The position numbers and the translations under genes were made by a program. Shown here in pieces: positions 4,786 through 9,654 of a stretch of 64,000 nucleotides of DNA; position 1 is the first letter of the stretch, and every line of letters begins with the position of its first letter. The stretch covers positions 5,811-69,810 of the forward strand of contig CAZBZV010000004.1 of assembly GCA_964496505.1 (NCBI GenBank). Reading direction: 5' to 3'. The DNA comes from an uncultured Ignavibacteria bacterium (GTDB lineage: Bacteria > Zixibacteria > MSB-5A5 > JAABVY01). The notes beneath the pieces are model-generated. The model saw nothing but the letters and a program-made list of their open reading frames with translations, made no database searches and was not told the origin of the DNA.

Positions 4786-5994
4786 CTATTCCCATACCAC
4801 CTGAATCCCTGCCGGCAGGAAGTACTTCGGCACAACATCTGCCAGATATTCCCGCTTTGCCGAATCATTCGGCGGGGTCAGATATAGTTTTATTCTGAGT
4901 ATCTTCTGAGAATTGCCGCCCGGAAGAACCGGCACGCCCATGGTGCTGAGCCGCCTGATCTCGACATTGTCGAAAGCGACTTCAGTTGATTCATTGACGA
5001 ATAGCCCTTTGAAGAAAAACGGCCAGAATTGTTCAATATTCTCGATCGCATAAGGGATTATCAGGGTGGTATCATCTATTCCAATTGATATTTTATTTTC
5101 ACAGTAATGGATCTTAAGCTTATGGACTCCGGTCTTATATGAGACCTTTCCGGTGATGTCATAGACCTCTGAGATAATCTCGAAGGCGTCATACCATCCG
5201 GATATCTTCAGGTAATCGGAACCGCCGTCCGAATAAAGAAATATTCCCAGATTCCGCCACTGGCTGTTATAGCTGAGAAATAGACCGAAGTAAGGATGGT
5301 ACGTTCCCGATCCGCTCAGCACCTGGAAATCGGTCTGGAAGTAAAAGCGCTTATATGAATTGGATATTATCGAGGCATTGGCCCGGGAATCTGAGCCATT
5401 ACCGAGGCCCACATATTTATTGCTGCGGACTTCCCAGGTCGAATCATTCTGGACATCCCATTCATCGGCGATACCGTCATTGAAATCATCAGAGGTCATT
5501 TCATAGGTTCGCTGATCAAGGCCGTAGACTTTATGGAAATTGAGCGTGAAATCCTCCTGTACGGACTCTTCGAATTCGGCCAGGTAATAGCCGAGGTTAG
5601 ATAGTATTTTGCGCAGGCCTGCGATCGTGCCTTTTCGCTTCCAAATCCAGACCGCATATTTAAGGAAATTGCGGCGCTCCTTTTCAGTTGCATAAGGGGA
5701 ATCCAAAAGTGGAAAACCGAGGATTTCAGCAATCCTGAATATGTATTTATCGGGACATTCGTCGTACCAGAGCAGATATAAAAGATTATCGATCAGGTCA
5801 ATCTTGTCTTCATAAGCCCGGTCAAAGATGCCGAAAAGCTTCGAAAAGTTGGGATCGAGGGCCTCAATTTCTGAAAGAAATTGCCCATAGACGAGCTCTG
5901 CAAGATCCTCTTCAGGCTGCTTCTGTATATCGCCCGACATATTGAATTTTTCAGGCATTCCGGTCGGACGGAATTTGCTATATTTACCCGGCAC
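4786..5994 (-). CDS. Baseplate/tail protein with a gpI (P2) / DUF2313 / YmfQ-like N-terminal domain
   Basis: Segment LLWYDECPDKYIFRIAEILGFPL...ERRNFLKYAVWIWKRKGTIAGLRKILSNLGYY matches the conserved core of the Tail_P2_I/DUF2313 family. Confidence 0.55.
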   Translation of the reverse strand: MPGKYSKFRPTGMPEKFNMSGDIQKQPEEDLAELVYGQFLSEIEALDPNFSKLFGIFDRAYEDKIDLIDNLLYLLWYDECPDKYIFRIAEILGFPLLDSPYATEKERRNFLKYAVWIWKRKGTIAGLRKILSNLGYYLAEFEESVQEDFTLNFHKVYGLDQRTYEMTSDDFNDGIADEWDVQNDSTWEVRSNKYVGLGNGSDSRANASIISNSYKRFYFQTDFQVLSGSGTYHPYFGLFLSYNSQWRNLGIFLYSDGGSDYLKISGWYDAFEIISEVYDITGKVSYKTGVHKLKIHYCENKISIGIDDTTLIIPYAIENIEQFWPFFFKGLFVNESTEVAFDNVEIRRLSTMGVPVLPGGNSQKILRIKLYLTPPNDSAKREYLADVVPKYFLPAGIQVVWE

Positions 5995-6905: not shown

Positions 6906-9654
6906 GGGATTTTAATTTTTTAAGGATTTTGCGTTTTGGTGATTGCTGTTGAGCTCCATTAAGCGGCAGATTGACCTGATCAGGAGTACCGTTTGCCACC
7001 GTAACATACTGAGCCGTGCTATCGCCCTGATGCTTGGCCTCGAAAAAAACGTCGGAATAGGCTGTACTATCCTGCTTGATGCAGATCCCGGTGTCGGGAT
7101 CATCATAAGAGGGATCATAATGATACCAGGAATGGCGGACGGTGTCGGTATATATGCCATCAATTCCGGTCGATCCAAAGGCGACTGTATCGCCATAAGC
7201 GTTTACGATTCTAACCTCTGCATTTTCCACGGGAGCGGAATTTGAGTCAGTTACATAGACATCTACGATTTTTTCAAAGGCGACCGTCTTGCCCCTGCAC
7301 CAGTCATGCTCTCCGCCGTCCATATTCATCCATGTCCAATCGATTTTGTCTTCCGAGGCCTCCCCCAGGGTGGTCAGGTTTTGCAGGCGATTGCCCGAAG
7401 CCGCATATCTGTAGGTAACATTCTGTGGGAATGCTATCGTATAATCCCCGGCATATTCGTTGTATACGGTATCGTTAACGAGGATGATGTCTCCCGCGCT
7501 CAGTTCGTGAAGGGCTTCGGAGCCCAATGCCAGCGGGATTGCGGATGAATCAGCGTAATAATAATTTCCCCAGAACTCATTACCGGTTCCGGGCCATAAA
7601 TCCAAAGCGTCCTGATCAGTCCTCGAGGTATCAACATGACCGATCATGAAAGCCCAGGCTGTTGTGGTAACATCGTTTTTGGGATCGAGGGAATCCGCCC
7701 TTAAAGCAAAATACCGGTTATTATAGAACTTATTGTCATGAAAATCATAATCGCACAAAAGGCGGTTCTGTGCGCTTGCACCGACATTGCCGGTTGTGGA
7801 ATCGCCGTCATAATACACTTTGAAGATATTGTCGTGGAAATCAAACCACCAGTTACCTTCTCCAGTGTCGCCTGCAGATCTCCGGATATAATGTCCCCAG
7901 GTCTTTCCGTCCTGTGATATCTCATTCGGGCCGTTGGCGCCTATAAATACGTTGTTATAAAATTGAAATGGCTCTGCTTCCGTACCGCCTATGAACTGGA
8001 GGATATAACCATTTCCTCCCTCATAAGTCGTTCCGGTGGTTACAATATTATCATGAATGATGCATCCGGATTCCCCTCTAAATACCGAAAGACCTGCGGC
8101 ATCGCCTGAGTTCTTAAATGCGCTTGGCGCAGGATATTCATACAGATCATTCCTGGCATCGATAACCAGAGAATCATCCCACATATATAATCGGGTATAA
8201 TCCACGATCGATATTCCGGTGTGCGGCGTTTGATGGACCGTCGTGCCGGTTACCTTCAGATGATATTCATTAGGATAGAGGGTTCTGTATATCCGGGGCG
8301 TACCTCTGAGCCTGATGCCGGAGCATGAGTTATGAGTTCTGTATTCGTAGGAATGGCAGAGGTTCCAGATATCGCAGTCTTTGACTTCAACCATATAAGA
8401 GCCGTTGCCGCCATAGGCCGAATGAGAATCAAAATTGGCTGCATCCCTGCCTTTCACAACCGCATCAATATTTTCGAAGAGGTACTGGCCGCCGCCCCAC
8501 ATCCTTATTGCCTGACAGGTATCGGCATCGGTTGATTCCGGAGCTCCATGAACCAATGCCCCTTCGCCGTCAGTGTTTATCACTTTAACCCAGTATGAAC
8601 CGGAACCGATATTGATTCCCACGGAATTGTCGGCCTCGCCGGTTCCATAGGTAATTGTATCATTCAAGAGAATCTCGATGTGATCAACATCACCGACATC
8701 GATAGCAGTGCCGGTTGCAGTTAAATCCATTTCTATGACATAGACTTTTCCGGAGGCGGGAATCGTATATGGTATGCTGTCCTGAGCCAGATAGACTGAA
8801 TCGGCCGGATCCCCGGTTGATTCAAAATATCCTTCCGGAGTGGTTATGTTCAGAACGGTGGAGGTATCCCAGTTTGTGTTATATTTGAAACCCGCCAGGG
8901 ACCAGAAATAATATCCGGTCTGCTGGCTGAGATTGTCTACAAAGAAACTGTCCGGATTTGTAATTCCGTCGATATCGGTTATTATAACACTGTCGGTATG
9001 ATTGGCGATATCCGGGTCGGTTCCATAAACCATTACAAGGCTGTCAAGCTCTTCCACAAAATCCCAATCATTCTGGATGTATAGATAATAAGGCTGGCTG
9101 TACAATAAGGTCAGACTCTGATTCTCGGACTGGCCTTCGGAATAATCGCAATAAAGGCTGAGGGCATAGTTGGTAGCATGCAGAGAAAATGAGGCCGTGT
9201 CGGGAAAGCCGTCTTCTACGTATTCAACCCAGCCGCTTCTGTGGGAGCTCCTTTCCGGCGCATTATAATCCTGGAATATATCCATCGAGGAACCGCCCGC
9301 CCAGACAACCAGCATATAGGTCTGGCCGGCTTGTATTGCCGGGGAGTTCCTGACGGTTAGCTGTCGCCACGTTGTATCGGCCGCCGTGAGCGAAATTGCG
9401 TCGGTCATTTCGATTAAAACCGTGTCAGCAGTATAAAGAGCGCCCTGCAATTGGGTGGCATTCGTGCTGGATTTGCCGGTGTAGACATAGATATAATCTG
9501 CATTGCCGGAGCTGGAAGGCGTGAAAAATCCTCCCCAGCGGTAGTTTATCATAGATGCGGCATTATCTTCTGGAGCATCATTGTTTCCAAATACAGCGGC
9601 AGATGCCAGTGCCGGAATTAGCACTAAAATAATTAAAAGTCTTATTGCCTTCAT
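6772..9654 (-). CDS. 960-aa right-handed beta-helix (pectate-lyase-fold-like) protein with an apparent Sec signal peptide; tailspike/depolymerase-like or a secreted moron
   Basis: N-terminus MKAIRLLIILVLIPALASAAVFG. Repeated beta-helix-type motifs IHDNIV, NNVFIGANG, HDNIFK and HDNKFYNN. A CarboxypepD_reg-like segment VENAEVRIVNAYGDTVAFGSTGIDGIY near the C-terminus. Confidence 0.5.
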   Translation of the reverse strand: MKAIRLLIILVLIPALASAAVFGNNDAPEDNAASMINYRWGGFFTPSSSGNADYIYVYTGKSSTNATQLQGALYTADTVLIEMTDAISLTAADTTWRQLTVRNSPAIQAGQTYMLVVWAGGSSMDIFQDYNAPERSSHRSGWVEYVEDGFPDTASFSLHATNYALSLYCDYSEGQSENQSLTLLYSQPYYLYIQNDWDFVEELDSLVMVYGTDPDIANHTDSVIITDIDGITNPDSFFVDNLSQQTGYYFWSLAGFKYNTNWDTSTVLNITTPEGYFESTGDPADSVYLAQDSIPYTIPASGKVYVIEMDLTATGTAIDVGDVDHIEILLNDTITYGTGEADNSVGINIGSGSYWVKVINTDGEGALVHGAPESTDADTCQAIRMWGGGQYLFENIDAVVKGRDAANFDSHSAYGGNGSYMVEVKDCDIWNLCHSYEYRTHNSCSGIRLRGTPRIYRTLYPNEYHLKVTGTTVHQTPHTGISIVDYTRLYMWDDSLVIDARNDLYEYPAPSAFKNSGDAAGLSVFRGESGCIIHDNIVTTGTTYEGGNGYILQFIGGTEAEPFQFYNNVFIGANGPNEISQDGKTWGHYIRRSAGDTGEGNWWFDFHDNIFKVYYDGDSTTGNVGASAQNRLLCDYDFHDNKFYNNRYFALRADSLDPKNDVTTTAWAFMIGHVDTSRTDQDALDLWPGTGNEFWGNYYYADSSAIPLALGSEALHELSAGDIILVNDTVYNEYAGDYTIAFPQNVTYRYAASGNRLQNLTTLGEASEDKIDWTWMNMDGGEHDWCRGKTVAFEKIVDVYVTDSNSAPVENAEVRIVNAYGDTVAFGSTGIDGIYTDTVRHSWYHYDPSYDDPDTGICIKQDSTAYSDVFFEAKHQGDSTAQYVTVANGTPDQVNLPLNGAQQQSPKRKILKKLKSLAEAYHEIKNTLSDYLLALGRQSDGAGVELADRSCRGLSPAVRR

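Follow-up and report, generated by a model that had tools for sequence, protein, structure and literature searches.

Signal- or membrane-targeted morons lie within the tail gene regions of phages lambda (lom and bor) and HK97 (gp15). Phage T5 expresses, early, a small exported lipoprotein, Llp, that blocks its receptor FhuA. An exported enzyme of tailspike-like fold is known from Pantoea stewartii, whose WceF, an exopolysaccharide glycanase with a right-handed β-helix, is not a virion part (PMC7949094), and about 5% of the prophage-encoded carbohydrate-active enzymes in one survey reportedly carry signal peptides (PMC13507307). Three elements are thus already known singly: tail operons with accessory genes for exported proteins, tailspike-like glycanases that leave the cell, and carbohydrate-active enzymes of prophages that bear a signal peptide. 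Here we analyze two adjacent open reading frames, ORF X and ORF Y (X and Y below), in the baseplate operon of a prophage contained in a 64,000-nucleotide (nt) stretch of contig CAZBZV010000004.1 (the window, to whose numbering all positions refer). Both have signal-like N-termini, and X contains a right-handed β-helix that belongs to an unannotated family. With a confidence slightly above even, we read X and Y as a late-expressed, Sec-exported, glycan-active pair that acts on an envelope or matrix glycan of the producing cell and is not a virion spike.

The X-Y pair and its insertion between baseplate genes

X (6772-9654, minus strand) starts with ATG and encodes 960 amino acids (aa); Y (5994-6890, minus strand) encodes 298 aa from its ATG, or 303 aa from a TTG (5994-6905, minus strand). 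The upstream neighbor of X is baseplate gene J (gp47-like; 9667-11151, minus strand), which matches Pfam Baseplate_J (PF04865, E=4e-21) and phrog_6 (E=5e-36), and the downstream neighbor of Y is a gpI-like baseplate gene (4786-5994, minus strand; Pfam Tail_P2_I, E=1.8e-8). An earlier reading of the window, made from its letters alone (the sequence-only reading), had located the pair between these two genes, and the matches of the flanks bear this out. X and Y are surrounded on the minus strand by a tail/baseplate train of myovirus type, in which the wedge genes of the P2/Mu type stand in the order GPW_gp25, Baseplate_J, Tail_P2_I (Pfam).

We compared the locus with its relatives by collecting the loci around gpJ homologues (L numbers) from metagenomes, genomes, and viral contigs, with a gpJ alignment as the query. 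The gpI gene directly follows gpJ in L040, L009/L010, L006, L007, L008, L068, and nearly all distant relatives, which indicates that X-Y is an insertion, as the sequence-only reading had proposed. The window has its signal-bearing pair between J and I, and so do L001 (669 + 244 aa), L002 (1463 + 252 aa), and L022 and L051-L053 (~1300-1730 + 520-533 aa). Comparable pairs precede gp25/W in L011 and L050 and precede gpJ in L012, L013, and L049, so that the cassette occupies three slots of the operon. In these cassettes X is always accompanied by a signal-bearing partner of the Y family, and close relatives that lack the cassette keep a conserved tail fibre of the 363-aa type described below. Two distant loci (L029 and L075) have signal-bearing ORFs beside J as well; these show no relationship to X or Y.

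X evolves fast: its identity to its counterparts is 26-29%, compared with 54-60% for J and 50% for I. Together with a 171-aa ORF located further upstream, X and Y are the least conserved genes of the tail module (25-40% identity versus 50-60% for J and I). The G+C content of X-Y (0.47-0.49) is the same as that of its flanks, and scans for sigma-70 and Bacteroidetes-type promoters yielded nothing specific, and the pair is bracketed by no promoter or terminator. X-Y thus resembles a moron in being present in some close relatives and absent from others at a gene boundary, and differs from one in having neither its own promoter and terminator nor a deviant composition.

The junctions of the cassette are tight. 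The stop codon of J lies 12 nt 5' of the X ATG, and the stop codon of Y overlaps the GTG start of gpI by 1 nt. The most likely start of Y is the ATG at 6890, which a GGAGG (6897-6901) precedes by 6 nt. Counted from this ATG, Y overlaps X by 119 nt (6772-6890), and counted from the TTG at 6905 by 134 nt; the overlap of more than 100 nt noticed in the sequence-only reading is therefore real with either start. It covers the tail of X and the coding region of the signal-like segment of Y. The same overlap is found in L001 (116 nt) and L002 (95 nt), and it is kept in these three phages although their gpJ identity is only 54-60%. The public gene calls of the Y homologues use downstream starts, at 13563 in L001 (13395-14129) and at 15849 in L002 (15798-16556); with these starts the signal-like leader of Y is lost and the overlap with X is avoided or reduced. 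Fusion of X and Y by frameshifting was rejected: the frame of Y is +1 relative to X and is closed by a TAA at 6912-6914, a slippery heptamer is lacking, a separate GGAGG and ATG serve Y, and the pairs in L011, L012, L022, and L053 do not overlap.

The tail of X (aa ~901-960; 6772-6954, minus strand) consists of an A-rich, basic patch, SPKRKILKKLK, and, after it, a run-on that is poorly conserved and terminates within Y. Where the cassette genes do not overlap, X stops after an Arg/Lys-rich patch, 4-9 nt before the Y start or at it (L022, L053, L050, and L012); L011 is likewise non-overlapping, but there the C-terminus of X is acidic. The window, L001, and L002 have a patch of the same type with the stop missing, and X continues for ~40 codons through the Y leader. 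We infer that the patch corresponds to the A-rich translation-initiation region of Y and that the tail beyond it is a tolerated run-on. A functional, conserved C-terminal basic motif in X was considered and dropped, as the patch, where present, lies just 5' of the Y start and is more simply explained as an A-rich Y leader.

Signal-like N-termini, fold, and cellular relatives

Signal peptides were called with a rule-based heuristic of our own, not a trained predictor, which looks for a basic N-region, an uncharged hydrophobic core of 8-16 residues, and small residues at -3 and -1. Both proteins are positive. The segment of X (aa 1-19; 9598-9654, minus strand) reads MKAIRLLIILVLIPALASA and is followed by AVFGNN; it shows all three of these features, and residues 3-16 are modeled as a helix by AlphaFold2. 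Y begins with MRLRILFLIICLLWAGSLMA, followed by LELNS, and has the same three properties. Among the members of the X family with a complete N-terminus, 77 of 88 are signal-like by this heuristic, compared with none of the 69 gpJ homologues that served as controls, and every X/Y pair in the relatives has basic-hydrophobic-small N-termini. The segment varies in sequence across homologues and keeps only its signal-like character, which fits a signal peptide and not a structural anchor.

A second line of evidence comes from stand-alone homologues of the N-terminal module of X. Those that lack a leader begin with M-x-x-F-G-x-T, which corresponds to the predicted mature end of the signal-bearing ones (ASA/AVFGNN and WPA/TFGAKD, where the slash marks the predicted cleavage site). 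We infer that X and Y are exported via Sec. Export by the twin-arginine translocation (Tat) pathway was rejected, because the S/T-R-R-x-F-L-K motif is not preserved: X has MKAIR, and the N-regions of the Y family are mixed in K and R, with RR not conserved. Neither X nor Y resembles the N-terminal anchor of a tail fibre or tailspike in searches of Pfam, PHROG, the PDB, and cultured phages. The sequence-only reading had named hydrophobic N-termini that are not signal-like, together with alignment to fibre anchors, as the finding that would overturn it, and we found neither.

X itself gave no match in Pfam, PHROG, NCBIfam, or PADLOC, and none among PDB sequences; in particular, there was no sequence match of X or of its family core to Pfam Beta_helix, Pectate_lyase_3, or NosD, and no Pfam or tail PHROG match that would mark a virion-anchor domain at the N-terminus. 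Word-indexed homology searches with X and Y returned nothing, tblastn searches of cultured phages with X and with the Y homologue from L022 gave no matches, and the public contig index has no gene on record with exactly the X product. The family was found by a full HMMER scan alone, which returned 136 representatives at E<=1e-3 (50% clustering). The matches form two groups, one to residues 1-175, consisting of small stand-alone proteins, and one to residues ~280-900, consisting of proteins of 600-1900 aa. In most members of the latter group, the match starts right after a signal-like leader and an S-L-P-Y-T motif.

These two groups correspond to separate parts of X. The N-module (aa ~20-175; 9130-9597, minus strand) is homologous to stand-alone proteins of 170-250 aa, and in L049 it is a separate signal-bearing ORF ahead of the X core. 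Larger relatives of the module carry Pfam DUF4082 or Lectin_like, sometimes beside a GHL15 or polysaccharide deacetylase domain, with the coincidence of these domains and the X-matching stretch not shown. They suggest that the N-module is a putative lectin-like carbohydrate-binding module. Descent of the module from the lectin-like protein encoded in the host flank of the prophage was considered and rejected, as the two have no similarity. The low-confidence linker that follows contains a segment (residues 193-274; 8833-9078, minus strand) similar to residues 604-684 at the C-terminal end of the L012 X protein (~80 residues, 36% identity, E=1.3e-6), which points to domain shuffling within the X family. 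The core (aa ~285-785; 7300-8802, minus strand) was delimited as a family unit by jackhmmer and has an IPYT motif at its start. It is followed by a C-terminal β-sandwich of the CarboxypepD_reg type (aa ~786-900; 6955-7299, minus strand), which matches 6fwv and 3e8v in a PDB profile search and 3e8v and 9hfj in Foldseek. Pfam CarboxypepD_reg is found in 11 of 42 family members, and apart from this sandwich the family core has no Pfam model.

An AlphaFold2 model of X was built with a 73-sequence alignment (a single-sequence run gave a predicted local distance difference test score [pLDDT] of 33). Its mean pLDDT is 70.5, and residues 380-900 are mostly above 90. The model consists of the leader helix, a β module (residues 39-120), a part of low confidence (121-284), an extended series of short strands, the β-sandwich (790-897), and a terminal helix; within the N-module, moderate confidence is reached only for residues ~39-120. 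In a Foldseek search of the PDB, the model matched the phage tailspikes or depolymerases of HK620 (E=1e-5), Acinetobacter phages Fri1 (gp49) and AM24, Klebsiella phage K64-1 (S2-4), and P22, as well as bacterial GH110, GH28, GH87, and PL6 enzymes and the Vibrio lyase RbmB. The match probability was 0.9-1.0 for the tailspikes, GH28, GH110, PL6, and RbmB, and a viral structure library returned phage "pectate lyase superfamily" and "right handed beta helix" proteins. On the basis of this model, the core is established as a right-handed, pectate-lyase-like β-helix. The helix proposed in the sequence-only reading is thus supported by AlphaFold2 and Foldseek, with no support from Pfam. The structure search that the same reading had suggested for telling a tailspike from a lyase fold confirmed the helix, but cannot separate a tailspike from a cellular enzyme. 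Both classes match about equally, TM-scores are low (0.15-0.28), and the identity of X to phage tailspikes is 8-13%.

The relatives of X provide more information. Its nearest full-length homologue over the core (P0071, 37% identity) adjoins a sugar ABC transporter among ordinary cellular genes, and its C-terminus matches the sorting domain of PorZ, a protein of the type IX secretion system (T9SS). P0074 carries a dockerin and lies in a cellular gene neighborhood, and P0085, on a 392-kb contig, adjoins polysaccharide-synthesis genes and several dockerin proteins. Other members bear Por_Secre_tail, CHU_C, Dockerin_1, fn3, or Ig domains. To judge from these domains and neighborhoods, the family is one of secreted proteins of cellular origin, which are probably glycan-active. 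The phage copies lack T9SS sorting and dockerin modules, X itself having no C-terminal sorting domain of the Por_Secre_tail or CHU_C type, and from what is known of T9SS they would be expected to stay in the periplasm unless lysis frees them. Eight residues of the helix (R439, N502, G546, N568, R591, N609, N646, and N697) are invariant in 39 family members, including phage copies, which suggests that the phage copies retain a shared activity.

Behind its signal-like N-terminus, Y has a conserved N-domain marked by a PDS motif, then a short fibre-shaft-type repeat and a C-terminal domain. Its homologues at the same position in L001 and L002 (33-39% identity) have signal-like N-termini when the upstream start is used, and all ten of the ten aligned Y-family members combine a signal-like start with the conserved PDS N-domain. 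Y has no match in Pfam, NCBIfam, PADLOC, or PDB sequences and only a marginal one in PHROG, through its repeat. This repeat, of the type I-x-x-G-A-I-T-x-x-K, matches tail-fibre PHROGs over only ~50-70 residues (phrog_28766, E=0.009; phrog_892, E=2.7e-6 for the L022 Y protein) and the L009 fibre (E=4e-5); judged from these alignments, the likeness is one of shared fibrous modules and nothing beyond. The second genes of all cassettes are distant relatives, linked stepwise by significant pairwise matches and by a profile that they share, and the first gene is of two types, a "SLPYT" type and a distinct "TYYV" type, of which only the L022 copy ("TYYV" type) matches Pfam Beta_helix (E=3.5e-6). Y is thus the constant element of the cassette, and the β-helix gene is the variable one. 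The conservation of the two ORFs as a cassette, the constant signal-like start of the partner family, the three slots, and a further signal-bearing ORF in the tail module (below) went unnoticed in the sequence-only reading.

The surrounding prophage

The tail train runs, in listed gene order on the minus strand, from the sheath gene (18596-20284) through two genes for gp19-type tube proteins to the tape measure gene (14901-16952) and, closer to the cassette, the genes for a gpD-like protein (12488-13693), the gpV OB-fold spike (12019-12501), and gp25/W (11152-11523; GPW_gp25). A portal gene and a prohead protease gene lie further upstream in the window. Downstream of gpI is a gene for a probable tail fibre of 363 aa (3685-4776, minus strand), whose homologues follow gpI in at least 14 loci. 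The protein has no family match in Pfam or PHROG, and its N-terminus, MADITRDQF, is conserved, anchor-like, and common across the lineage. On the 3' side of the fibre gene are putative lysis genes (2909-3676, minus strand) encoding a 144-aa protein as well as a 107-aa protein with a transmembrane segment at its N-terminus. For both, family matches are lacking, as are homologues in the related loci, and nothing spanin-like was recognized beside their genes.

A third signal-bearing ORF of the tail module (13853-14368, minus strand) encodes the 171-aa protein mentioned above, which ends in EMEWPF. It lies between a gene for a 184-aa tube-like protein and the gpD-like gene. The protein has no family match; its homologues in L001 and L002 have signal-like N-termini, and the gene is absent from L004, L022, and L040. 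With its alternating hydrophobic strands, the sequence looks like that of a small outer-membrane β-barrel of the Lom/OmpX type.

The phage genes are flanked on the right by a host type I-C CRISPR-Cas operon (57158-63656, plus strand; Cas3 HD-helicase, Csd1/Cas8c, and Cas7) and on the left by genes for host-type secreted proteins, and so the window contains a prophage integrated in a bacterial chromosome. The left flank encodes a papain-family protease with a Lectin_like domain (1-1174, minus strand), which extends past the edge of the window, and a FISUMP/Fib_succ_major protein with a dockerin-like repeat (1830-2666, minus strand). Of the sigma-70-like promoters in the region that was scanned, the best (2802-2775) is found just 5' of the start of the FISUMP gene. 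Three of the genome relatives are in bins labeled Ignavibacteriales, Ignavibacteria, and Rhodothermales, a hint that the host group of the lineage is near these bins, which is consistent with the FISUMP and dockerin-like genes of the host flank.

Within the prophage, a tRNA-Gly (TCC) gene (32281-32356, minus strand) adjoins a large ORF of 732 aa (30052-32250), located ahead of the portal gene. A 212-aa ORF (33620-34258, minus strand) that lies between head module and early region has a signal-like N-terminus beginning MKKAMTLILAIAILLSLTPISA. Four genes of the early/accessory region (38856-51031, minus strand) are possible partition or defence cargo. Their products are a ParB-like protein (598 aa), a patatin-like phospholipase (315 aa), a HerA/DUF87-type ATPase (663 aa), and, at 1218 aa, an apparent SbcCD fusion with Metallophos and AAA_23 domains.

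Competing readings and comparison with known systems

We propose that X-Y is an accessory two-gene cassette in the baseplate late operon of a temperate myovirus lineage infecting bacteria of the Fibrobacterota-Chlorobiota-Bacteroidota (FCB) group, and that X was taken over from a family of secreted proteins of cells, probably active on glycans. X would be a modular exported enzyme, with a Sec signal peptide, a putative lectin-like module, a right-handed β-helix, and a β-sandwich, and Y would be its obligatory, likewise exported partner, with a conserved N-domain and a short fibre-type repeat. The two genes would be transcribed with the baseplate genes and translated by coupling, and the proteins would cross the inner membrane via Sec and lose their signal peptides. 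Having no T9SS sorting or dockerin domain, X would remain periplasmic until lysis. In the periplasm or after release, the pair may cleave or bind an envelope or extracellular polysaccharide of the producer. Destruction of a receptor glycan, or clearance of the matrix, would then keep progeny from being trapped and reduce superinfection.

The sequence-only reading had left a choice between a tailspike or depolymerase and a secreted polysaccharide-active enzyme, and of the two we favor the exported enzyme. The closest homologues of X are secreted proteins of cells, which bear a T9SS sorting domain or a dockerin and are encoded in non-phage neighborhoods, the leaderless homologues of its N-module start exactly at the predicted mature N-terminus, and X combines a putative lectin-like module with a β-helix and has no virion-binding domain. 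If X were instead a virion tailspike or depolymerase and Y an adaptor or short fibre, both mounted on the J/I wedge, the hydrophobic N-termini would be assembly or anchor elements that are not exported, or would be removed in some other way. That is an unlikely arrangement in our view, and the strongest of the alternatives. Several findings speak for it and weigh against the exported pair. The best Foldseek matches in the PDB are phage tailspikes (HK620, Fri1, AM24, K64-1, and P22 are among the top ones), and the fibre-shaft repeat of Y is common to the fibre of a related phage (L009). X is the most variable gene of the module and varies among relatives as receptor-binding proteins usually do; the genes are translationally coupled to J and I; the cassette is never found outside the baseplate operon in ~12 loci, as expected for baseplate-attached proteins; and the sole other receptor-binding candidate in the window is the short 363-aa fibre. 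Moreover, export is predicted by a heuristic applied to sequence, and the substrate and receptor-destroying role are proposals. A virion role is nevertheless disfavored, because the pair is dispensable in several close relatives that retain the conserved fibre and because a structural partner with a fixed place would not usually be found in three different slots (before W, before J, and after J). Neither X nor Y is similar to the N-terminal anchor of a fibre or tailspike, their N-termini conserve signal character and not sequence, and the same N-terminal segment is found on cellular homologues with T9SS sorting or dockerin domains. Particles of tailed phages assemble in the cytoplasm, where an exported protein could not join them. 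A variant in which a Sec-exported tailspike and short fibre mature in the periplasm and join the baseplate at or after lysis, outside the cytoplasm, strikes us as very improbable, and we know of no precedent in tailed phages for Sec export followed by extracytoplasmic joining of virion parts.

Two further readings keep the export of the pair and assign it another purpose. In the first, X-Y is lysogenic-conversion cargo (an auxiliary metabolic gene set) that gives a polysaccharide-degrading host an extra secreted glycan-degrading enzyme and its binding partner. In its favor, the element is integrated as a prophage, the family to which X belongs is cellular and secreted, with one member adjoining a sugar ABC transporter, the host flank codes for secreted dockerin/FISUMP and lectin-like proteins, and signal peptides are reported on about 5% of prophage-encoded carbohydrate-active enzymes (PMC13507307). 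We hold this to be distinctly improbable all the same. The pair has no promoter, terminator, or compositional difference of its own, and its position mid-operon among late structural genes would probably leave it silent in the lysogen; the phage copies no longer have the domains (T9SS sorting or dockerin) by which the enzyme would reach the cell exterior, and a conserved, lineage-specific partner such as Y is not expected for a borrowed metabolic enzyme. A moron for the benefit of the host, as the sequence-only reading had phrased its second option, is accordingly not upheld in that form, the genes being packed tightly in the late baseplate operon. The other reading, to which we give the least credence of all, is an accessory role in lysis, in which the exported pair would complete lysis in a host without classical spanins by attacking, from within the periplasm, an outer layer of the envelope such as a capsule, an S-layer glycan, or a polysaccharide linked to the outer membrane. 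Late co-expression, the predicted periplasmic location, and the lack of a recognizable spanin-like gene beside the putative lysis genes at 2909-3676 would suit it. However, the pair lies outside the lysis cassette, it is absent from close relatives that still must lyse their hosts, and Pfam and family scans detected no known peptidoglycan- or membrane-active domain in it.

If the exported pair does act on the glycans of its producer, it would represent an enzymatic route by which a phage clears or destroys its own receptor from inside the envelope, and it would show how modules pass between cellular secreted enzymes and phage depolymerases. The locus also has consequences for annotation. β-helix genes beside baseplate genes should not be named tailspikes automatically, the public gene calls for Y truncate its signal-like peptide (L001 and L002), and a β-helix family without a Pfam model is now defined (136 representatives at 50% clustering). 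X, having no Pfam match, would probably not be recognized as a carbohydrate-active enzyme.

Of the known systems, the tailspike depolymerases of HK620, P22, Fri1 (gp49), AM24, and K64-1 (S2-4) are the best structural matches to X (E=1e-5 to 3e-3, probability ~1), and their genes, too, adjoin tail or baseplate genes. They have an N-terminal particle-binding domain and no signal peptide, whereas X has a signal-like peptide and a putative lectin-like module; the likeness is at the level of the fold only. Lom, Bor, and gp15 resemble X-Y in being encoded by envelope-targeted accessory genes in or beside the tail operons of temperate phages and in being present in some relatives only. Classical morons, however, are small genes that occur singly, bring their own promoter and terminator, and deviate in composition, whereas X-Y is a coupled pair of 3.7 kb that has none of these features and occupies three slots. 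The analogy with T5 Llp concerns the proposed role, in which a receptor would be neutralized on the infected cell, progeny protected, and superinfection blocked; Llp is small, acts early, and masks a protein receptor, whereas X would be large, late, and glycan-acting. WceF is like X a signal-peptide-bearing right-handed β-helix protein of tailspike-like fold, and it acts on the exopolysaccharide of its own producer. It differs in being encoded on the chromosome, in an exopolysaccharide biosynthesis cluster, and in having a Tat signal, a proven trimeric state, and a measured activity (PMC7949094), whereas the gene for X lies with a partner gene in the baseplate operon of a prophage, and X carries a signal of the Sec type and shows no detectable similarity in sequence to any solved structure. 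In the literature and databases searched, we found no description of the combination seen here, a conserved, mobile, signal-bearing pair that resembles receptor-binding proteins, is coupled to baseplate genes, and occupies three slots. What this locus adds to the known systems is such a pair in an uncultured FCB-group prophage lineage, built on an unannotated β-helix family with 136 representatives.

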